Assembly (NCBI GenBank): GCA_018063165.1
Contig: JAGOQU010000001.1
Location: 130,330 to 194,329, forward strand
Direction of reading: 5' to 3'
DNA from: Minisyncoccota bacterium
Lineage (GTDB): Bacteria > Patescibacteriota > Minisyncoccia > Phycocordibacterales > UBA5272
DNA: 64,000 bases
Shown here: positions 5,865 through 46,863 of the stretch, piece by piece
How the letters are laid out: the number at the start of each line of letters is the position of its first letter
How positions within the stretch are numbered: the first letter of the stretch is position 1
The notes under the pieces: generated by a model
Seen by the model: the letters and a program-made list of their open reading frames with translations, nothing else
Told to the model about the DNA's origin: nothing
The model's database searches: none
Made by a program: the position numbers and the translations under genes

Positions 5865-6416
5865 TTATTTAAATGAGTCTTTGATTGTATTAGTCTGTTC
5901 GTTGTAATATATATAAGCACTTTTACCAATAGAAGAATTGACTACCATAGACTCTCCTTCATTTCTGTCTGCGTAATTATATATAGTTACACCTTGTTGT
6001 AAAAGTATGGTCTGTGGTGCTATTCTGTCACCTAAAAAAATTGCATTAGTAGAAATATATGAAGTTCCAGATGCTATAGCAAGTACAGCATAATAAAATG
6101 TGCCACTGCCACCATTATTATTAACAAGTAAAACAGCTGCACCAGGCACACCTTTTTCACCAAAAATACCATATACAGGCTCTCCAAATAGTGAAAGTGT
6201 ATTTTTTGTAGCAGATTCTGGAGTTATTTCTTTAGACGCTTTTCCTTCTTTTAATACAAATAGTTCACTATCTATTATGTATGCTATGTTTTTTGGATCA
6301 TTTTTCATTAATATGTCACCTGCGTCTGTAAAATTAAAACGATATATTCCAGCTATAATAATAGATATTACAGTAACAAGTATACAATAGAATACAATTC
6401 GTATAGTTTTTTTCAT
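5865..6416 (-). CDS. Membrane-anchored hypothetical protein
   Basis: Signal-anchor MKKTIRIVFYCILVTVISIIIAG followed by a G/S/T-rich soluble domain. Start placed at the internal Met. Confidence 0.45.
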   Translation of the reverse strand: MKKTIRIVFYCILVTVISIIIAGIYRFNFTDAGDILMKNDPKNIAYIIDSELFVLKEGKASKEITPESATKNTLSLFGEPVYGIFGEKGVPGAAVLLVNNNGGSGTFYYAVLAIASGTSYISTNAIFLGDRIAPQTILLQQGVTIYNYADRNEGESMVVNSSIGKSAYIYYNEQTNTIKDSFK

Positions 6417-6515
6417 GATTAGTATAGTATACATCAAAATGTCTCTATATTTTTTTGTTTTTCCTTTACTAATTCTTTTACTTTTGAGATACTGTATGTA
6501 TAAATAAATTTTACT

Positions 6516-8219
6516 ATGGTAAAAAATACACAATCACCAAAATATATTTTTGTTGTTGGTGGTGTTATCTCTGGTGTAGGAAAAGGAATTACCGCATCTT
6601 CTATTGCAAAGATTCTTCAAAATAGAGGTCAAATTGTTACTTCGATCAAAATAGATCCATATGTTAATGTTGATGCAGGAACAATGAATCCAACAGAGCA
6701 CGGAGAAGTATTTGTTCTTGATGATGGTTATGAGACAGATCAAGATATGGGTAATTATGAACGTTTTCTTAATATCACATTACCAAGTGATAACTATATG
6801 ACAACAGGTAGGGTATACCAGAGCGTTATAGAAAAAGAACGTAGTATGTTTTATAAGGGTAACTGTGTACAAGTTGTGCCACATGTACCTATGGAAGTGA
6901 TAACACGAATTAAAACAGCACAAAAGAAAACAAACGCAGATGTTGTTGTGATAGAGATCGGGGGTACTGTAGGAGAATATGAAAATATTCTTTTCTTGGA
7001 AGCTGCTCGTATGATGAAAACAGAGAAACCAAATGATGTTGCTTGTGTTGTTGTGTCGTACCTTCCTATTCCTTTTGCTGTAGGAGAGATGAAAACAAAA
7101 CCAACACAGCATGCAGTAAGAACACTTCAGTCTTCAGGTCTTTGGCCGGATATGATTATTGCGAGAAGTGCATTACCACTTGATGATAAACGAAAAGAAA
7201 AGCTAGCTTTTTTTTGTAATGTAAAAAAGGAACATATTATTTCTGCCCCCGATGTTAAAAGTATTTATGATGTACCTGTTAATTTTGAAAAAGAACATGT
7301 AGGAGATATTATTTCTGAAATACTTGGAATAAACACTGGTACTGTATCTGTTGAAAAAAAAGCATTAGGAGAACAATCTAAAAAAGATTGGGAACTTTTT
7401 GTAAAACGTGCAAACACTGTTAAAAATGAAATAAAAATAGCTATTGTAGGAAAGTATTTTGATACAGGAGATTTTGTTTTATCTGATGCATATTTGTCGG
7501 TAATAGAAGCTATAAAACATGCATCATATGCACAAAATAAAAAACCAATTATCACATGGGTAAATTCTGGAGATTTTGAAATAAGTGACACACAAAAGCA
7601 TTCCGATGTTGTAAAAAAATTAAAATCACTTAATGATTATGATGGAGTTCTTGTTCCTGGTGGTTTTGGCTCACGTGGTATACAGGGAAAAATTGAAGCA
7701 ATTAAATATGTTCGCGAACATAAGATTCCTTATCTTGGACTTTGTTATGGTATGCAATTAGCTGTTATTGAATTTGCTCAGCATGTTGTAGGTATAGCGG
7801 GTGCAACATCAAAAGAGTTAGATGAACATGCAAAGGATCAAGTTATTACTATAATGGAATCACAAAAAGAAACAATTAAACATGCAAAATATGGAGGTAG
7901 TATGCGTCTTGGTGCGTATGATGCAAAACTAAAAAAAGGGAGTTTGGTTGCTGGATTGTATAATTCGCTTCATGTAAGCGAAAGGCATCGTCACCGTTAC
8001 GAAGTAAATAATAAGTATGTAAGTGAATTAGAAAAAGCTGGTTTAGTTTTTTCAGGTACATCACCTGATGGTTCTCTTATGGAATACATTGAACTTCCAA
8101 AAAAAGTGCATCCATTTTTTGTGGGTACACAAGCGCATCCAGAATTTAAATCACATCCAACTTCGCCACATCCTCTTTTTATTGGTTTTATACAAGCATC
8201 AAGCAAAAAAAGAAATTAA
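6516..8219 (+). CDS. pyrG: CTP synthase
   Basis: N-terminal synthetase motif FVVGGVISGVGKGITASSIA and a glutamine amidotransferase domain with GLCYGMQ and HPEF. 567 aa. Confidence 0.97.
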   Translation: MVKNTQSPKYIFVVGGVISGVGKGITASSIAKILQNRGQIVTSIKIDPYVNVDAGTMNPTEHGEVFVLDDGYETDQDMGNYERFLNITLPSDNYMTTGRVYQSVIEKERSMFYKGNCVQVVPHVPMEVITRIKTAQKKTNADVVVIEIGGTVGEYENILFLEAARMMKTEKPNDVACVVVSYLPIPFAVGEMKTKPTQHAVRTLQSSGLWPDMIIARSALPLDDKRKEKLAFFCNVKKEHIISAPDVKSIYDVPVNFEKEHVGDIISEILGINTGTVSVEKKALGEQSKKDWELFVKRANTVKNEIKIAIVGKYFDTGDFVLSDAYLSVIEAIKHASYAQNKKPIITWVNSGDFEISDTQKHSDVVKKLKSLNDYDGVLVPGGFGSRGIQGKIEAIKYVREHKIPYLGLCYGMQLAVIEFAQHVVGIAGATSKELDEHAKDQVITIMESQKETIKHAKYGGSMRLGAYDAKLKKGSLVAGLYNSLHVSERHRHRYEVNNKYVSELEKAGLVFSGTSPDGSLMEYIELPKKVHPFFVGTQAHPEFKSHPTSPHPLFIGFIQASSKKRN

Positions 8220-21640: not shown

Positions 21641-21714
21641 TGGCTGGGGTACAAGGACTCGAACCTCGATACTCAGGACCAAAACCTGATGTCCTACCAT
21701 TAGACGATACCCCA
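21641..21714 (-). tRNA. tRNA-Gln (anticodon UUG)
   Basis: My own fold. Acceptor TGGGGTA/TACCCCA with U1-A72 (typical of bacterial tRNA-Gln). D-stem GTCT/GGAC. Anticodon stem TCAGG/CCTGA with loop TTTTGGT. T-arm CGAGG-TTCGAGT-CCTTG, discriminator G, then CCA. Confidence 0.85.
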
Positions 21715-39529: not shown

Positions 39530-39880
39530 ATGGGTAGCAGTATACAAGATTATTTAAAAAAAATCAATAGCAAGCTAACTTGGCTTGATTGTGTAAGTCT
39601 TTTAGTTACAATGCTTTTTATTATGATTTGTGTGGTATTTTTAATCATAAAGAAAAAAAGTTCAAATATTCCCGTTTCGTATATAGTAGGTAAACCACTT
39701 GTTTCAACTGTTGTTGACGCGCAAGATATTCGTCCTTTTGGAAGTAAACATGGTACAACATATACTTTTTACTGGTGTAAAAAACAAGAAATGATACGTG
39801 AATATAATAAAATTTATTTTAATAACGAAGAAGAAGCAAAGAAAACAGGTAGAACACTTTCAAAATTTTGTCAAAAATAA
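39530..39880 (+). CDS. Membrane-anchored protein with a C-terminal Ada-like zinc-binding motif
   Basis: TM anchor, then TYTFYWCKKQEMIREYNKIYFNNEEEAKKTGRTLSKFC. This resembles the Ada N-terminal segment YHRPSC...ENVRFFHSAEEAEAAGYRPCKRC. Confidence 0.4.
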   Translation: MGSSIQDYLKKINSKLTWLDCVSLLVTMLFIMICVVFLIIKKKSSNIPVSYIVGKPLVSTVVDAQDIRPFGSKHGTTYTFYWCKKQEMIREYNKIYFNNEEEAKKTGRTLSKFCQK

Positions 39881-40242: not shown

Positions 40243-40650
40243 CTAATTATTGTGTTTTAATCCTATGTATCCTGTATATATTACAAGTGCTGATATGGGT
40301 ATCATCGGAATAACCAGCATTGAAGCTAAGATATTTGTAGTGACGCCATCTTCTGAATATATACGTAGCAGAATTATGCTTGCGTATAATGATGTGCATA
40401 TATTTGTTAGTCCATAACAAGTGGTTATCCAAGTTATTTGAGCTGGGTATTTTGTTATCCAGCGTAGCGTTGTCAGTATGACAATGCAAGGTGAGACAAA
40501 CAAAATCAAAACAAATGAATGTATTACAAACCAAGATGCAGGGATGATTCCCCACCTAAAGAATAGTATAGGTATAATACCTATACTAAATAAACAAGTA
40601 AGAAGAGATGATACGGGGTGTATATACTCTTTTTTTAAAATATTTTTCAA
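40243..40650 (-). CDS. 4-TM membrane protein
   Basis: 135-aa hydrophobic ORF. Confidence 0.45.
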   Translation of the reverse strand: MKNILKKEYIHPVSSLLTCLFSIGIIPILFFRWGIIPASWFVIHSFVLILFVSPCIVILTTLRWITKYPAQITWITTCYGLTNICTSLYASIILLRIYSEDGVTTNILASMLVIPMIPISALVIYTGYIGLKHNN

Positions 40651-41418: not shown

Positions 41419-42171
41419 ATGATTCAAACTTATATTTCTATTATTTTTTCTCTGTTTATTATTGAAGTTCTTCTTTCGGTAGATAACGCACTTGTGAATG
41501 CAACACTCGCTGAGTCACTTCCAGAAGAAAAGAGAAAGAAGGCACTTCGTATTGGTATTCTTTTGGGTGCATTCTTTCGAGTTGTTGCACTTTTCCTTGC
41601 AGCACTTATTATTCAAAACATTTGGCTTAAGATAGCGGGAGGTCTCTATCTCGTCTATTTGGCAATTAACCATCTTGGGCGAGTTGTTTCTGAAGACGGT
41701 AAAGAAATTAAAGCAAAGACGACATATAGGGGAGTTATCTTGCAAATCGCTCTAGCGGATATTGTGTTTAGTCTCGATAATGTAATCTCTGCTGTAAGCT
41801 TTTCAGAAAATATTTATATTGTGATGCTTGGAGTTGGTATAGGTGTTATCTCAATGCTCTTTATCACACCAATACTTTCGAGGCTTATACATAAGTATAA
41901 TGGGATGCCTCAAGCTGCGTATACAATAGTGGGTGTTGTTGGTGTAACTCTTCTTATAGAAACGTTTATGCATATTCATATTTCTGAATTTAGTAAATTT
42001 GTAACTGTTTTTTCTATAGCGTTGTTTACCGTATGGTATGAACACAGTTTTATTGTTAGACGTATTTCTAATCCTGTTCTTAAAAGTTTGCAGTATATTA
42101 TCGCAATTCCTGTTGATATTGTATATGCTATTAAAAGTGTATTGGTTAGAGTATTTGAAAAGGTTAGATAA
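41419..42171 (+). CDS. TerC-family integral membrane protein
   Basis: LSVDNALVNATLAESLPEEKRKKALRIGILLGAFFRVVALF and a second DN-containing half-repeat. Confidence 0.85.
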   Translation: MIQTYISIIFSLFIIEVLLSVDNALVNATLAESLPEEKRKKALRIGILLGAFFRVVALFLAALIIQNIWLKIAGGLYLVYLAINHLGRVVSEDGKEIKAKTTYRGVILQIALADIVFSLDNVISAVSFSENIYIVMLGVGIGVISMLFITPILSRLIHKYNGMPQAAYTIVGVVGVTLLIETFMHIHISEFSKFVTVFSIALFTVWYEHSFIVRRISNPVLKSLQYIIAIPVDIVYAIKSVLVRVFEKVR

Positions 42172-42173
42172 AA

Positions 42174-42284
42174 AAAGAAAAGTGCGAAACCGAAAGGTTT
42201 CGCACTTTTTACATTCTTTGAAGTGTCATATATTTCATTTCTTTTTCTTGTACCTTTTTTTCTTTTTCGTGTGGAGGGAGAGAT
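42174..42284. repeat. 111-bp direct repeat, copy A (3' coding end plus terminator)
   Basis: Identical apart from 1 mismatch to 42866-42976. Confidence 0.8.
42177..42210. terminator. Bidirectional terminator (copy A of the shared 3' module)
   Basis: AAAAGTGCGAAACCgaaaGGTTTCGCACTTTTT between convergent genes. Confidence 0.75.
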
Positions 42285-42766
42285 GTTGTGCAAAGAAGAT
42301 ATTCAATTAGAACTGACAAAAATATCAACATTGAAAAACAAAGAAAATTAAACAAAAAAATTAACTCAATAAGATTTGTTTCATTTTTACTGCCAAGAAA
42401 TATAAAGAAAGGAAGAGAAAGTATACAAAGAAAACTAACTAAAATTAGTATAATTCTAGGCTCTTTCCTATTTTTTATTTCAGCTGGAAGTATTCCGAGC
42501 GGCTGGTTTCTTTTCGAAATCATTTCCCATATCATGAGGTTTAAGGTGCATGTAGTCATAAAAACTAAATTTATGATTGCACTTATAAAATTACTTTCAA
42601 GTATAAATCTTGTTGTTCCTACGAGAAAGAAAACAAGTAATCCTACCCTTATAAGTGATAAGCAAAAGTTAGTCAAGTCTTTCCTAGTTATTTTTGTATA
42701 GAGTTCAAATTGCCTTACAGACCATTGTGTCATGTTAATAAGTCCTGTATCGATTGTAGAGAACAT
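42209..42766 (-). CDS. 4-TM membrane protein, paralogue A
   Basis: 185 aa. The N-terminus MFSTIDTGLI and the C-terminal 25 aa SLPPHEKEKKVQEKEMKYMTLQRM are shared with paralogue B. Confidence 0.5.
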   Translation of the reverse strand: MFSTIDTGLINMTQWSVRQFELYTKITRKDLTNFCLSLIRVGLLVFFLVGTTRFILESNFISAIINLVFMTTCTLNLMIWEMISKRNQPLGILPAEIKNRKEPRIILILVSFLCILSLPFFIFLGSKNETNLIELIFLFNFLCFSMLIFLSVLIEYLLCTTSLPPHEKEKKVQEKEMKYMTLQRM

Positions 42767-42865
42767 GCTAATTCCTTTATATTTGAATAAATATTGTTGA
42801 AAATCTAAGAGTAGACTACATTAACATCCGTCTTTCGTCAACAAGGTGTAAGATATTTTTTGATA

Positions 42866-42976
42866 AAAGAAAAGTGCGAAACCGAAAGGTTTCGCACTTT
42901 TTACATTCTTTGAAGTGTCATATATTTTATTTCTTTTTCTTGTACCTTTTTTTCTTTTTCGTGTGGAGGTAGAGAT
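42866..42976. repeat. 111-bp direct repeat, copy B
   Basis: See copy A. Confidence 0.8.
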
Positions 42977-43437
42977 CTGGCACACAAAAAATATTCAACC
43001 ATTATGGTAAGAAATAATTGAAAAACAATACATACGCTATTTTTATATATATCATGTTCAACAAGAAAAAGGAGATACAAAAAGAAAATATTAATAGGAA
43101 AGGAAAAGAGCCAAATAAGTCTGATATCTTTTCTTGAAATAATTACCTTCGGTAAAGTACTTTCTTGTTTTTGTTTTTTTATTATCTTGTATTGTTGATT
43201 ACTAAGTATAAAAGTAAGCACACAATACATAATAAGATTAAAGAAAGCCGCTAAGCGTTGTAAAATAATATCTTGATTGTTGTAGACTAAAAATACAATA
43301 GAAATAATACTAACTATTTTTAGAAAAGTGGTACAAATATAAATAAGTTTTTTCTTAGTTATTGATGTATGTATTTCTAGTGTATGTAGTATTTTTTCAC
43401 TAATTTCTATTAATGCAGGATCAATTACAGAGAACAT
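42901..43437 (-). CDS. 4-TM membrane protein, paralogue B
   Basis: 178 aa. N-terminus MFSVIDPALI, the same C-terminal tail and the same terminator as paralogue A. The central region is divergent. Confidence 0.5.
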   Translation of the reverse strand: MFSVIDPALIEISEKILHTLEIHTSITKKKLIYICTTFLKIVSIISIVFLVYNNQDIILQRLAAFFNLIMYCVLTFILSNQQYKIIKKQKQESTLPKVIISRKDIRLIWLFSFPINIFFLYLLFLVEHDIYKNSVCIVFQLFLTIMVEYFLCARSLPPHEKEKKVQEKEIKYMTLQRM

Positions 43438-43539
43438 AAAAACCTTTCTATGAAATTATTTCACACAAAATCTATATCTAACTTACAGTAACATGTATAT
43501 TTAGTCAATATAACGTATACTTAGATGTATATTACTTGT

Positions 43540-46500
43540 ATGAATAAAAATAGCAAAGCACACAATATATTATTTGAAGATCGTTATAAAGCCTTAAATA
43601 AAGCTCAAAAGAAAGCAGTTGATACTATAGATGGACCGGTTATGGTGATAGCAGGTCCTGGGTCAGGTAAAACGGAACTTCTTTCTCTCCGTATTGGAAA
43701 TATTTTAAAAGCTGGCACTGCACGAGCGTCATCGATTCTCTGTCTTACATTTACAGAAACTGCCGCACGTAACATGAGAGAGCGACTTGAGAAACTTATA
43801 GGAGCAGATGCATACCGTGTTGCTATTTATACATTTCATGGTTTCTGTACAGATATCATTGGTAGATATCCAGAATATTTTTTTAATGCGACACATTTTA
43901 GGCCGGCAAGTGATCTGGCACAGAGTGAAATTTTGGAAAAGATATTTGAGAGACTTCCATATAAACATGTGCTTGGAGGTTTTCATCCTGAGCGGGGGTA
44001 TTCATATCTGAAAGAGTGTCAATCAAAAATAAAAGATATAAAAAAAGGAGGGCTAACACCAAGTAGGTTTAAGGAAATAATACAAGAAAACGCACTTGTA
44101 TATCCAATGCTTAATAAAATTCTTGCAGATAATTTACCTGATCGTGTCGGGAAGGATTCATACAATTCTTTTGTAACAATGAGAGACCTTTTCATACAGT
44201 CGGAAACATCACTCGGTGCGAGGTATGCTATTTCGATAGGTAGAGCGCTCGAGGCAGTAGACCAGACCGAAAAGAATACTCCGCTGTCTGCATGGAAAAG
44301 TGAGAACACAACAAAAGATGAAGCAGGTAACAGAGTGCTCAAAGATTTTTTACTTACAGAAAAATTACTTGCTCTTGGTGATGTATATGAGATGTATCAG
44401 GTTGCTCTCCATCAGAATGGGTATTTTGATTATGAAGATATGATACTTCAAGTGGTTGAAGCACTCACTAAACATATTTCTCTTCGTACTGAGTTAGAAG
44501 AAATGTATCAGTATATTATGGTTGATGAATTTCAAGATACGAACAACGCTCAGCTTTCACTTGTAAAAGCAATATCAAGTAATCCAGTTCATGAAGGAAA
44601 ACCTAATGTATGTGTGGTGGGTGATGACGATCAAGCAATTTATAAATTTCAAGGTGCAGAAATTTCTAATATTCTTTCTTTTAAAAAATTATATGATGAT
44701 GTAGAAGTTATTGTTCTTACTGAGAATTATCGTTCCACACAAAAGATTCTTGATTTTGCTCGAGCTATTGTTGTCCAGGGTTTTGAGCGTTTAGAGACAC
44801 GTGAAAAGATTAGTAAAAATCTTACAGCAAAAAATAATACATTACATGATGGTGATATTTATACGCTTTCATTTCCATCTCCTGAAGAAGAGTATGCGTA
44901 TATAGCAGGAGAAGTGGCTACGTTGCTTAAAAATAAAGTAGAAGCAAAAGAGATAGCATTAATAGCACGTGAACATAAACAACTTATTTTACTTCTTCCG
45001 TATCTTGATAAATTAGATATTCCGTATATATATACTCGTAAAGAAAACGTGTTTGATGAACAACATGTAAAAGAACTTATAACTCTTTGTCGTTTCCTTG
45101 CTACTATCGGTGACACAAAATATGAACGTGATGATTTGTTACCAAGTATTCTTGCGTTTCCATTTTGGGGACTTGATCGTATTTCTATTTGGAGAATTGC
45201 CGAGCAAGCTAAACGAGAAAATGTTTCTTGGCTTTCAGCTATGGAACAATCAAGCGATAAAAATATTGCTGAACTCGCAAAGTTTTTAATCGAACTGGGG
45301 ATAGCATCTCAAACAACACCACTTGAAATTATTTTAGACACTCTTATTGGAAGTAAAGATATTCCTCTTACTAGTGAATCACCTGATGACGACGCTTCTT
45401 TTTTGCGTGAAAATATTACCCTTACAACAGAGTTCACATCACCATACAAAGCTTTTTATTTTGGTAAAAGTGCGCTTAAAGAAAATGCGAGTTCGTATAT
45501 ACATTTTCTTTCGTCACTTAGAGTTTTTATGCGAGCACTTCGTGAGTATAAAGAAGGGGAGTCTCTTAGGGCACATGATGTAGGAGATTTTGTTGATATG
45601 CATGTATCATATTCAATACCGCTTATTAACGAAACTTCATTTGCACATAATGAAAATTCTATTCAATTACTTACTTCACATGGTGCAAAAGGTCTTGAGT
45701 TTGAATATGTTTTTGTGGTGGCTGTAAATGATGCTGTTTGGGCTGGAAGTAAAAAAGGTAGTAAGCTTTCATTTCCTGAGAATTTACCGTTAACCGGAGC
45801 GGGTGACAATGAAGATGATTTCATTAGACTCTTTTATGTAGCGCTCACACGTGCACGACATACTATATATATTACACATCATAAAAGTCCTCTTAGATTT
45901 TTACAAACAAGTGAATTACCAGAAACAAAAAATGAATACGCTGAAGTAGCTTCTTCGGAACTTTTGGCTCATGGACTTTCTGTATATCAAGCTCCACCAT
46001 TTGCAAAAGATGAAAGAGCTCTTCTTGAAAAAGTTGTAGAAGGATATATGCTTTCACCAACACATTTAAATAATTTTTTAAATATTATAGATGGTGGACC
46101 AATGATGTTTCTTGAACAAAATCTTCTTCGTTTTCCTCAAGCAAAAACAGCAAGTAGTGTTTATGGAACTGCTATACATAAAGCACTTGAGGATGCACAT
46201 GTTATGGTGCGTAAAGATGGAAAGCTTCCAAAAGTAGAAGCGCTTATAGGTATATTTGCTAAAGAATTAAAGTATGGAAGATTACAAGATTTTGAAGAAG
46301 ATAAATTACGTAATCGTGGTGAAAAAGTTCTCAGAACATATTATGAATTAAAAAAAGATGAAATCAAAAAAGGGTCTTTAGTAGAAATTAATTTTTCAAA
46401 ACAATCTGTTATGGTAGATGGTGCGTTGCTCACTGGTAAAATAGATAAAGTTATAGAAGATGAGGATAAAAATTGGATTGTGGTTGATTTAAAAACTGGT

Positions 46501-46863
46501 AAAGGGTTCAGTGAGTGGAATGAGAAGGGGCAGAGTGCTTATGATGAAATTAAATTACATCATTATAAATATCAACTTATGATGTATAAAATACTTGTTG
46601 ATAACTCACGTGATTATAGTGTACACACAGTAACTTCTGGTGTACTTGAATTTGTTGAAGAAGAAGTTGAACAGAAGATACAAGAACTCTCTCTTATTTT
46701 TTCTGGTCATGATATAGATCATGAACTTCCTCGTTTTAAAAAACTTATCGTATCTGTATATAAAAAAATTGCTACACTTGATTTTCCAGATACAGAAAAA
46801 TATGAAAAAACGTTAGAAGGTATTAAAGAGTTTGAAGAAGATTTGATTGCTGGTGTTGTGTAA
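43540..46863 (+). CDS. UvrD/PcrA-type helicase fused to a C-terminal PD-(D/E)xK (RecB-like) nuclease domain (AddA-like)
   Basis: Walker A AGPGSGKTELL. The UvrD motifs DEFQDTN and VGDDDQAIY, then YRST. The C-terminal ...VVDLKTGK...YKYQLMMYKIL (DxK plus QxxxY) is a RecB-family nuclease signature. Confidence 0.85.
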   Translation: MNKNSKAHNILFEDRYKALNKAQKKAVDTIDGPVMVIAGPGSGKTELLSLRIGNILKAGTARASSILCLTFTETAARNMRERLEKLIGADAYRVAIYTFHGFCTDIIGRYPEYFFNATHFRPASDLAQSEILEKIFERLPYKHVLGGFHPERGYSYLKECQSKIKDIKKGGLTPSRFKEIIQENALVYPMLNKILADNLPDRVGKDSYNSFVTMRDLFIQSETSLGARYAISIGRALEAVDQTEKNTPLSAWKSENTTKDEAGNRVLKDFLLTEKLLALGDVYEMYQVALHQNGYFDYEDMILQVVEALTKHISLRTELEEMYQYIMVDEFQDTNNAQLSLVKAISSNPVHEGKPNVCVVGDDDQAIYKFQGAEISNILSFKKLYDDVEVIVLTENYRSTQKILDFARAIVVQGFERLETREKISKNLTAKNNTLHDGDIYTLSFPSPEEEYAYIAGEVATLLKNKVEAKEIALIAREHKQLILLLPYLDKLDIPYIYTRKENVFDEQHVKELITLCRFLATIGDTKYERDDLLPSILAFPFWGLDRISIWRIAEQAKRENVSWLSAMEQSSDKNIAELAKFLIELGIASQTTPLEIILDTLIGSKDIPLTSESPDDDASFLRENITLTTEFTSPYKAFYFGKSALKENASSYIHFLSSLRVFMRALREYKEGESLRAHDVGDFVDMHVSYSIPLINETSFAHNENSIQLLTSHGAKGLEFEYVFVVAVNDAVWAGSKKGSKLSFPENLPLTGAGDNEDDFIRLFYVALTRARHTIYITHHKSPLRFLQTSELPETKNEYAEVASSELLAHGLSVYQAPPFAKDERALLEKVVEGYMLSPTHLNNFLNIIDGGPMMFLEQNLLRFPQAKTASSVYGTAIHKALEDAHVMVRKDGKLPKVEALIGIFAKELKYGRLQDFEEDKLRNRGEKVLRTYYELKKDEIKKGSLVEINFSKQSVMVDGALLTGKIDKVIEDEDKNWIVVDLKTGKGFSEWNEKGQSAYDEIKLHHYKYQLMMYKILVDNSRDYSVHTVTSGVLEFVEEEVEQKIQELSLIFSGHDIDHELPRFKKLIVSVYKKIATLDFPDTEKYEKTLEGIKEFEEDLIAGVV

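Follow-up and report, generated by a model that had tools for sequence, protein, structure and literature searches.

A shared 112-nt 3' end with terminator, probably spread by gene conversion, in two diverged tandem genes for four-helix membrane proteins

Two tandem genes for small membrane proteins, here termed A and B, were analysed in a continuous stretch of 64,000 nucleotides from a Minisyncoccota bacterium (GenBank assembly GCA_018063165.1, contig JAGOQU010000001.1; called the window in the following). The most likely explanation of the locus, in our judgement a probable one, is that A and B are diverged members of a constrained protein family and that a direct repeat at their 3' ends originated by recent segmental gene conversion between the tandem copies. 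The genes would then share 112 bases of 3' end and terminator because this DNA was recently copied between them. The same pattern could be left by an incoming gene-A unit which used the stretch as integration homology, or be the relic of a recent duplication in which a foreign allele later took the place of one gene body.

Gene A (42209..42766, minus strand) codes for 185 amino acids and gene B (42901..43437, minus strand) for 178, as the first-pass annotation had read these two adjacent genes. Hydropathy predicted four transmembrane (TM) segments each, at equivalent positions. Gene A is a canonical family member (family HMM, E=7e-59) with the N-terminal motif MFSTID..QWSVRQFELYT, the loop LPAEIKNRKEPR and the C-terminal EYLLCTTSLPPHEKE. 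Gene B is of a derived type (E=2e-44); in its N-terminal motif other residues stand in place of the near-invariant W15, R18 and Q19 (SEKILHTLEIHT), and the loop and C-terminal motifs are retained. Over their full length the proteins are 36% identical. Without the tail identity drops to 25%, the same range as between random family members, and the earlier description of the TM cores as heavily diverged was correct. The final 24-25 residues are the same; the reported common 25-residue tail stands, save for one M/I exchange. The public annotation of gene A covers only the C-terminal 104 amino acids (KBC41_00980); the missing N-terminal half exposes gene-calling errors.

Gene A is convergent with a gene for a TerC-family membrane protein (41419..42171, plus strand; Pfam TerC, E=6.8e-42). 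Gene B is divergent from a gene for a UvrD-type helicase with a C-terminal PD-(D/E)XK nuclease (43525..46863, plus strand; Pfam and synteny). An HD-domain protein and ribosomal protein L27 are further neighbours. Consensus matching located a promoter-like block upstream of either gene. That of gene A (42799..42841, minus strand) consists of TTGACG, 17 nt and TAGTCT, includes ATGTTAATGTAG and is followed by AGATTTTC. That of gene B (43466..43508, minus strand) consists of TTGACT, 17 nt and TAAGTT, followed by AGATTTTG, and sits in the intergenic region common to the divergent helicase gene. In an alignment of nine upstream regions, other genomes included, the TTGAC, TA...T and AG.T columns were invariant. 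Judged by these elements, each copy appears to form a full transcription unit, in which a conserved promoter block, a gene and the same bidirectional terminator follow one another, and both genes are probably expressed.

Copy 1 of the repeat (42173..42284) follows directly on the TerC stop codon; it spans the 24 final codons of gene A and the terminator. Copy 2 (42865..42976) spans the corresponding part of gene B, again 24 codons and the terminator, and is located upstream of the gene A promoter region. The tail DNA is rich in A, and its complexity is fairly low. A near-identical direct repeat had been noticed before; its dimensions, given as 111 bp with one mismatch, were amended to 112 nt with two mismatches, at 42236 (M/I) and 42278 (synonymous, Leu). 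With the remaining alignment about 48% identical, the probability of two or fewer mismatches in 112 nt is about 4e-32. Such a block cannot be due to chance.

A terminator scan and folding energies predicted a bidirectional intrinsic terminator in copy 1 (42178..42209), common to the convergent TerC gene (plus) and gene A (minus). It is a stable stem-loop of 14-15 bp with six GC pairs and U-runs on both strands (dG -23.1 kcal/mol on the plus and -21.3 kcal/mol on the minus strand, z about -6). An identical hairpin in copy 2 (42870..42901, dG -20.6) is the predicted terminator of gene B, ahead of the gene A promoter. The hairpins are positioned after the coding regions and overlap the stop codons of genes A and B by 1 nt. 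This agreed with the proposal that the repeat includes a terminator hairpin, and also with the proposal that one copy terminates terC, since the hairpin at 42178-42209 begins 6 nt past the TerC stop codon. An Rfam scan of the whole window yielded a single tRNA and no family over the repeat region. An exact hairpin search and a protein-pattern search of a genome-contig collection gave no match and do not provide a genome-wide copy count; in viral contigs no hairpin copies were found.

The likeness of the protein ends has to be seen against the family as a whole, which comprises about 146 cluster representatives, nearly all of full length, from one Candidatus Pacebacteria MAG and from metagenome contigs. 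Three cytoplasmic segments, MFSxID..QWxVRQxELYT, LPxEIxxRxxxR and EYLLCTTSLPPGEKE, are kept in every member, and the TM helices are variable in every member. Column entropies, calculated from 62 members, were lowest in the C motif (0.9 bits), followed by the N-terminus (1.6), and reached 3.2-3.3 in the TM pairs; the last ten residues are variable (2.4 bits). Asp6, Arg104, Cys159 and Pro164-Pro165 are invariant. The conserved parts, a helix at the N-terminus, the loop between TM2 and TM3 and the EYLLCTTSLPPGEKE motif at the C-terminus, presumably have a functional role. Most likely these are small inner-membrane proteins with both termini in the cytoplasm. Because the same segments are conserved in every member and the helices change quickly in each of them, conserved ends and a variable core are a family trait. 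Family constraint alone accounts for the similar ends and different middles of proteins A and B. The idea that both ends were homogenised is not supported: homogenisation concerns the 3' end only, and the N-terminal likeness reflects protein-level conservation across the whole family. Likewise, calling the N-terminal decapeptides identical was an overstatement; MFSTIDTGLI and MFSVIDPALI agree in 7 of 10 residues, DNA identity is limited to the first 9 nt and the synonymous difference in the N-terminal region is 0.47.

The family is unannotated, and neither by structure nor by sequence does it have a relative whose function is known. Searches of Pfam, NCBIfam, PADLOC and PDB gave no significant match, and no relatives were found in viral contigs. 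Sub-threshold hits to Promethin, PspC, TIGR01218 and EscU (Pfam, NCBIfam, PADLOC) were discarded as hydrophobic-composition noise. TIGR01218, the 'tandem five-TM protein', scored 13.1 bits against gene B (E=0.059), failed to hit gene A and gave sub-threshold hits in 2 of 62 family members. Membership was rejected since the score is far below the cut-off of 35 bits and four instead of five TM helices are present. An AF2 model built from 62 sequences had a pLDDT of 95.2 and four long helices; an earlier model from three sequences had reached a pLDDT of 70 and matched generic helical bundles only. A fold search with the better model (pLDDT 95) again returned generic 4-helix or membrane bundles and no PDB match. 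In hydropathy and in the AF2 model the predicted external loops are short, about 2-7 residues. With its synteny and a high-confidence model, this unannotated membrane-protein family would merit a DUF-type entry.

At the 3' end the similarity is of a different kind. Identity between A and B in windows of 30 nt was 30-73% along the genes and 97% in the last two windows. A dN/dS ratio for A against B would be meaningless, since saturation is reached at synonymous sites (0.83); we compared the synonymous difference between regions instead. It rose from 0.08 in the tail to 0.83 in the core. Where both proteins have the same residue, the codon is also the same in 22 of 23 cases in the tail, and in 21 of 48 cases elsewhere. 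The non-coding hairpin is 100% identical between the copies. Thus, a sharp boundary of similarity exists which includes synonymous and non-coding positions. Within this block the paralogues are closer to each other than to orthologues: the coding tails of A and B are 97.3% identical at the nucleotide level, compared with 84.9% to locus L003, 80% to L001 and L013 and 75% to L018. The hairpins of L001 and L018 differ, and that of L003 is homologous with two compensatory pair changes. The suggestion of gene conversion made in the first-pass annotation is supported by a footprint of recombination or gene conversion at the 3' module, where synonymous and hairpin sites match, the remainder is saturated and the tails of relatives differ.

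The gene trees point in the same direction. With the tail excluded, gene B joined P0005 from L003 in each of 300 bootstraps and P0020 in 234 of them; genes A and B grouped in 3. With the tail included gene A moved beside the gene-B clade, a grouping of A, B, P0005 and P0020 that is present in the point-estimate tree only. The putatively converted segment and the rest of the gene are thus phylogenetically incongruent, within the resolution of saturated neighbour-joining trees. At distances of about 1.3-1.8 these trees are compatible with an old duplication and subsequent losses as well as with lateral stacking. In core columns the nearest relative of gene B is P0005 (53%) and that of gene A is P0009 from L018 (38%). 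Outside the tail, A and B form no sister pair; they are two deeply diverged family members. The option originally considered, that the genes duplicated recently and that selection then acted rapidly on the core, is not supported, given 25% identity outside the tail, 3 of 300 bootstraps and closer relatives elsewhere.

The same gene pair was present in two further assemblies. GCA_017992935.1 (JAGONQ010000005.1) represents the same strain and is 100% identical over 6.5 kb. GCA_020050275.1 (JAHZTE010087185.1) represents a different strain, which is 97.0% identical with 118 differences and no gaps. The copy-specific differences are kept in both strains. Strain differences are distributed as a mosaic over a background of about 0.5%, with dS of 1.6 in one helicase tract. 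Gene B differs by 1 nt between strains. In gene A a tract from TM3 to the tail (42249..42518, minus strand) carries 22 differences and reaches into the repeat; this tract is polymorphic between strains. Here strain 2 reads SLPPGEKEKKVLEKE and the window reads SLPPHEKEKKVQEKE, like gene B. Between 42248 and 42173 the four copies are the same except for the I codon of gene B in the window (42928, the partner of 42236). The strain-2 tail difference lies at the edge of the 270-bp divergent tract, which may itself be an import from a third lineage. The two strains also provide the only unsaturated comparison of gene A, with 16 non-synonymous and 6 synonymous changes and a dN/dS of about 0.7. This is indistinguishable from neutrality and not above 1, and the diversifying selection proposed at the outset is not in evidence.

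How, then, may the block have been formed? Non-reciprocal homologous recombination would have recently made a stretch of 112 bp, 24 codons plus the terminator, identical in both genes. The exchange probably started within the coding stretch of strongest conservation, and the version of gene B, i.e. of the resident locus, is the most likely donor to gene A. In a donor test the window gene A had the H and Q of the B copies, and the Q also occurs in the B-type tail of L003; strain-2 gene A had G, the family consensus (SLPPGEKE), and L. These are few sites, and import from a third lineage could have produced them too. In length and sequence the closest match to the tail is the L003 B-type tail. 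We infer conversion in preference to other recombination, and this direction of it, from two strains and few informative sites, on which the estimate of recency also depends. The locus shows homologous recombination at work within the genome and between strains of an uncultivated CPR lineage with a reduced genome.

Every other distinct locus examined contains one copy of the gene; two copies occur in this species only. Where contigs were long enough, the gene occupied a slot between the helicase gene and the TerC or HD-domain gene (L001, L003-L013, L016-L018). The helicase is kept beside it, by synteny, in L001, L003, L007-L012, L016 and L018, and that of L018 is 83.6% identical to the one in the window. 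L015 has a single copy in a different neighbourhood. The alignment with L003, the closest relative, runs through gene B to the stop codon and resumes from the gene A tail into TerC. Therefore, the window has one extra unit of 692 bp, bounded by the repeat. The 112-bp direct repeats make this gene-A unit prone to deletion, and L003 has exactly the structure expected after such a deletion. Since the repeats flank a whole gene, the arrangement is naturally unstable, and its presence or absence could be tracked in metagenomes.

The extra unit is also an argument for the strongest rival to gene conversion, which we regard as unlikely. It takes the identical block as a junction instead of a later conversion: a complete gene-A unit with promoter, gene and tail, coming from a related lineage, was inserted into a resident B-only locus by recombination in the conserved tail and terminator, or the whole unit was recently duplicated in tandem and one of the bodies was then exchanged for another allele through a crossover in the tail. 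Both routes result in a duplicated tail and terminator. Gene A brings its own conserved promoter block, and the nearest relatives of A and B reside in different genomes. The clade of gene B, with members in the window, L003 and L013, tracks the similarity of the flanking HD-domain protein (91% and 74%), as expected if B is the resident orthologue. What fills the slot varies between genomes; L018 has an unrelated membrane ORF there and L016 an ORF of 83 aa, and mosaic recombination tracts flank the locus. The L018 ORF was considered as a hidden family member, i.e. as part of a second tandem pair, and was rejected (hhalign probability 0.4%, no internal repeat). The difficulty of the junction is that a single crossover between diverged tails generates two different hybrid modules, and homogenisation, or a donor with the same sequence over this block, is still needed. 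Moreover, the databases hold no closer donor-like relative of gene A, the best being 38-40% identical, and in a saturated tree gain is inseparable from differential loss.

A wider and more speculative view, which we consider rather doubtful, is that the slot between helicase and TerC is a recombination hot spot in the Pacebacteria-related clade, where very divergent alleles of a rapidly evolving membrane protein are swapped between lineages and occasionally stacked, the window species being in a two-allele state. If this were true, the conserved stretches that code for the cytoplasmic ends and the flanking core genes would be the homology anchors, and two alleles would be kept since A- and B-type proteins differ in function or form a heteromer.

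We consider it quite improbable that the genes represent a diversity-generating cassette, an immunity array or a receptor array, with conserved ends as recombination anchors and cores swapped under diversifying selection by phages, toxins or host contact. Highly divergent cores between conserved ends are indeed present, recombination tracts exist at the locus, and the gene type switches between A and B from one fairly close relative to the next (L018, L003, window). In addition, the dN/dS of about 0.7 in TM3-TM4 of gene A is far above the 0.08-0.31 of neighbouring genes. However, it does not exceed 1, the N-terminal DNA is not homogenised, each other locus has a single copy and silent cassettes were absent from the loci examined. 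The variable parts are membrane helices joined by tiny external loops, and exposed, positively selected regions were not found. Neither a toxin, bacteriocin, secretion or defence neighbour nor a PADLOC hit, a viral relative or a recurrence as an array was detected. With a conserved housekeeping neighbourhood in all but one of the other loci, the immunity-array or phage-receptor interpretation first offered for these genes is not supported. A caution emerges here: the cassette-like look is the product of family-wide constraint on cytoplasmic motifs plus one short 3' recombination tract.

Still harder to sustain is an identity of the block by selection on the nucleic acid, as a terminator plus 3'-UTR or antisense element, with recombination not being the cause. 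A strong predicted bidirectional terminator is used by three genes, and the homologous hairpin of L003 is maintained via its two compensatory changes, which indicates that the structure matters. Yet selection on a terminator fixes a structure, not each base, and the sequences in L003, L001 and L018 do differ. Between the 75 coding bases and orthologous tails identity is no more than 75-85%, the last ten residues are variable across the family and Rfam has no match in the region. Finally, an assembly artefact by wrong expansion or chaining of two strain alleles, conceivable in a metagenome-assembled genome with a short-read contig of a further sample breaking exactly inside the repeat, is practically excluded by the two further assemblies and by copy-specific differences common to both strains, and A and B are not alleles merged by the assembler because their bodies are 25% identical as proteins; the repeat, for which the first-pass annotation had allowed for an artefact as a refutation, is real.

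Several known systems invite comparison. Bacteriocin and polymorphic-toxin loci carry arrays of immunity proteins which, as here, are small, divergent multi-TM proteins in tandem. Genes A and B differ in that no toxin, export or processing gene is nearby, PADLOC has no match, the housekeeping context is conserved in all but one other locus and the cytoplasmic motifs are strongly conserved. The pilE/pilS system of Neisseria is a case of cassette-based antigenic variation. Conserved stretches around variable sequence and recombination between copies are common features; here, however, silent partial cassettes are lacking and just two full genes, each with its promoter block, make up the set, a single copy exists in all relatives and the variable parts are embedded in the membrane and not exposed. 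The TIGR01218 proteins of low-GC Gram-positive bacteria are small multi-TM proteins in tandem as well, with the weak sub-threshold hit described above, but phylum and helix number are different and tandem occurrence is exceptional in the present family. With bidirectional Rho-independent terminators of convergent genes the hairpin between TerC and gene A shares a GC-rich perfect stem between an A-run and a T-run. The sole oddity is the second identical copy between co-directional genes, inside the repeat.

Closest to our favoured explanation is gene conversion between bacterial paralogues, examples of which are tufA/tufB in Salmonella, rRNA operons and babA/babB in Helicobacter pylori. The latter have near-identical ends and a divergent middle, and serve antigenic or adhesin switching. 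A change of phenotype, as in bab switching, is not among the features seen for the putative exchange between A and B. Gene conversion and concerted evolution in prokaryotes have been surveyed in general (PMC6053082). Genes A and B share with such paralogues that they are closer to each other within a segment than to orthologues, a sharp boundary which includes synonymous and non-coding sites, a conflict of trees between segments and a strain-variable tract. They differ in that the rest of A and B is as diverged as any two family members and in the host, an uncultivated CPR bacterium. Also distinctive is the tract itself, which is very short (112 bp), confined to the 3' end and includes the terminator.

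Gene A (42209-42766, minus strand, 185 aa) and gene B (42901-43437, minus strand, 178 aa) are neighbours, bounded by a convergent TerC gene (41419-42171, plus strand) on one side and a divergent UvrD/PD-(D/E)XK helicase gene (43525-46863, plus strand) on the other. The two proteins are 36% identical with 14% gaps (BLASTP). The 3' ends of the genes share a direct repeat whose period is 692 bp. The repeat reported by the first-pass annotation as 111 nt with one mismatch was found, yet in exact register the copies (42173-42284 and 42865-42976) are 112 nt long with two mismatches, at 42236 (Met/Ile) and 42278 (a synonymous Leu codon). Besides the last 24 codons, the repeat contains a perfect hairpin, AAAAGTGCGAAACC-GAAA-GGTTTCGCACTTTT, which occurred exactly twice in the 64-kb window and not at all in shuffled sequence. 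The hairpin scored as a terminator on both strands and folded with -20.6 to -23.1 kcal/mol (z about -6). Because its first copy begins 6 nt past the TerC stop codon, the earlier view that it serves as the terminator of terC as well is reasonable. The repeat may even run on over this stop codon with a 3-nt gap (42163-42172, TTAGATAAAA, versus 42858-42864, TTTGATAAAA). The internal copy may then hold a remnant of the TerC 3' end, a match which is very short and AT-rich.

An assembly artefact was rejected. The window stems from a Candidatus Pacebacteria MAG (CPR/Patescibacteria). Over 6.5 kb, contig JAGONQ010000005.1 of GCA_017992935.1 matches it at 100% identity, gene pair included. A different strain, GCA_020050275.1 (contig JAHZTE010087185.1; strain 2), also has the pair, with 97.0% identity over 3,974 nt without gaps. 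Copy-specific differences, e.g. C versus A at 42278/42970, were retained in both strains. Another sample yielded a 1.9-kb Logan contig that ended within the repeat; short-read assemblies break at true repeats.

How far does the similarity of A and B extend at the DNA level? Synonymous and non-synonymous differences were 0.83 and 0.49 in the core, 0.47 and 0.40 in the first 30 codons, and 0.08 and 0.017 in the last 24 codons. At identical residues the same codon was used in 22 of 23 cases in the tail and in 21 of 48 elsewhere. With about 48% identity in the remainder of the codon alignment as background, the probability of such similarity in the block is about 4e-32. Judged by these figures, homogenisation of DNA is confined to the 3' end. 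This supports the proposed gene conversion of the 3' module; a homogenised N-terminus was not observed. The supposedly identical N-terminal decapeptides, MFSTIDTGLI and MFSVIDPALI, agree at 7 of 10 residues, and their DNA is the same for no more than the first 9 nt. Purifying selection was excluded as the cause of the tail identity, because orthologous tails of relatives are only 75-85% identical to that of the window and are followed by terminators of different sequence. What can account for it is recombination between the two copies. The hairpin of the closest relative (L003) is homologous to that of the window, those of L001 and L018, two loci from other genomes, are unrelated. In L003 (10555-10585 versus 42178-42209 in the window) the hairpin carries two compensatory changes, U-A to C-G and A-U to G-C, which indicates selection for the predicted stem.

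Single-sequence searches with family proteins returned almost no matches. A profile of A, B and P0004, a further member, run against 1.84 billion representatives yielded 146 clusters, nearly all of 165-210 aa and matching end to end. In an alignment of 62 members (A4) three segments were conserved, N-terminal MFSxIDxxLIxxxQWxVRQxELYTxxTRK, a loop LPxEIxxRxxxR and C-terminal EYLLCTTSLPPGEKExxKxEKEM. Mean column entropy was 1.6 bits at the N-terminus, 3.24 in TM1-TM2, 2.5 in the loop, 3.30 in TM3-TM4, 0.9 in the C motif and 2.4 in the last ten residues. Similar ends around a dissimilar middle are thus, at the protein level, the look of any two family members, owing to the family-wide conserved segments. 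By hydropathy A, B and P0004 each have four TM segments, in corresponding positions, and AlphaFold2 with the 62-sequence alignment (pLDDT 95.2, pTM 0.87) modelled helices at 2-23, 28-57, 60-85, 101-127, 132-158 and 165-178. Basic residues are concentrated in the tail and in the loop between TM2 and TM3. The positive-inside rule accordingly predicts cytoplasmic N- and C-termini, with all three conserved segments facing the cytoplasm. The family had no above-threshold match in Pfam, NCBIfam or PADLOC, a PDB sequence search returned nothing, and none of 62 matches from a profile search of 5.8 billion proteins had a Pfam domain or an informative name. In public annotation gene A was apparently started at an internal Met (the 104-aa protein KBC41_00980), gene B has no name in any source, and several further database members are likewise called over the C-terminal half alone, at 101-116 aa.

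Loci with family members were recovered from metagenome collections. When the ORFs of the window and of L001-L012 were scanned with a family HMM, the window species alone had two copies and every other locus had one; the gene tables of L013 and L015-L017 each contain a single family-sized gene, and a direct test of the second ORF in L018 as a family member was negative. Where contigs reach far enough, the family gene forms a divergent pair with the helicase-nuclease gene and a convergent one with TerC or an HD-domain gene, even where the helicase is only 42-45% identical; one member, P0007, is located elsewhere. The content of the slot between helicase and TerC differs among related genomes. 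In L018 an extra, unrelated 186-aa multi-TM ORF (6315-6875; hhalign probability 0.4%) lies between family gene and TerC, in L016 (5647-5898) and L017 an 83-aa ORF lies between helicase and family gene, and TerC is absent at this position in L009, L012, L013 and L016. Nearby, a hydrophobic 135-aa ORF (40243-40650, minus strand), 89% identical in L003, and a 116-aa ORF with an N-terminal hydrophobic segment (39530-39880, plus strand), with an identity of 72% in L003 and of 43-53% in more distant loci, are both conserved and syntenic in relatives; neither has a Pfam match. The sole Rfam match at gathering threshold in the window is a tRNA (21644-21714, minus strand).

A promoter-like block was present upstream of all family genes examined. 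The upstream regions of A (42799-42841, minus strand), B (43466-43508, minus strand) and seven orthologues (L001, L003, L007, L009, L010, L012, L013) align on TTGAC, 17 nt and TAnnnT, including ATGTTAATGTAG, followed about 6-7 nt on by AGATTTTC. Gene A thus carries its own copy of the putative promoter, and the repeated unit is a whole predicted transcription unit. A further motif, AGTATACG, 5-6 nt upstream of the -35 box in single-copy loci and gene B and decayed at gene A, may be the predicted -10 box of the divergent helicase promoter.

Gene B is of a derived type with other residues in place of the near-invariant W15, R18 and Q19. Its orthologue P0005, 53% identical in core columns, is the sole copy in L003 (DNA 78-83%; TerC 84%, HD-domain protein 91% and helicase 81% identical to the window proteins). 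Gene A is canonical and matched best to P0009 of L018 (38% identity, one gap, 117 bits; helicase 83.6%, TerC 80%, HD-domain protein 75% identical); A against B scored 76 bits, raised by the common tail. Neighbour-joining with the tail placed A next to the B clade. Once the tail was left out, A and B were 25% identical over 150 columns and grouped in 3 of 300 bootstraps, whereas B and P0005 grouped in 300 of 300, joined by P0020 from another genome in 234. The window-L003 alignment runs through gene B to its stop codon and resumes in the gene A tail into TerC, so that relative to L003 a single additional 692-bp unit, delimited by the repeat, lies in the window. Either of two histories fits such a unit: loss of gene A from L003 through recombination between the repeats, or gain of a gene-A unit at the tail in the lineage of the window. 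As for the pair itself, with tree distances saturated, it may be an old duplication with losses or a second allele stacked in.

Differences between window and strain 2 formed a mosaic: 0-0.7% in the HD-domain gene, TerC and the intergenic regions around A and B, 1 nt in gene B, 22 nt in gene A (42249-42518) and about 80 nt in the helicase (44100-44418; dS 1.6, dN/dS 0.09). In this 320-bp helicase tract differences fall mostly on third codon positions between strains otherwise 97% identical, which suggests import of the tract by homologous recombination from a lineage far more diverged. Of the changes in the gene-A tract, 16 are non-synonymous and 6 synonymous; the resulting dN/dS of about 0.7 was indistinguishable from neutrality (p = 0.44) yet clearly above that of neighbouring genes (p = 8e-4 against 0.16), indicating weak constraint, not positive selection. 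A recent duplication with rapid selection on the core, as initially suggested, is not supported by this ratio or by the tail-less tree; an immunity or receptor array is not supported by the ratio, the single copy per other locus or the PADLOC result. The divergent tract extends into the repeat. Gene A of strain 2 reads SLPPGEKEKKVLEKE, the G being the family consensus, and that of the window reads SLPPHEKEKKVQEKE like both B copies; the Q also occurs in the B-type tail of L003. In length the window tail equals that of L003, to which it is also closest (85%). Together these observations, with few informative sites among them, favour a transfer that took the B or resident version into gene A, the window strain having the longer tract.

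Taken together, the comparisons describe two tandem, otherwise ancient paralogues of an unannotated family of Patescibacteria membrane proteins, between which a short tract comprising the 3' end and terminator underwent gene conversion or recombination. The finding is real and ordinary in kind. Examples of gene conversion between bacterial paralogues are tuf and bab. General background on concerted evolution in prokaryotes is available (PMC6053082).
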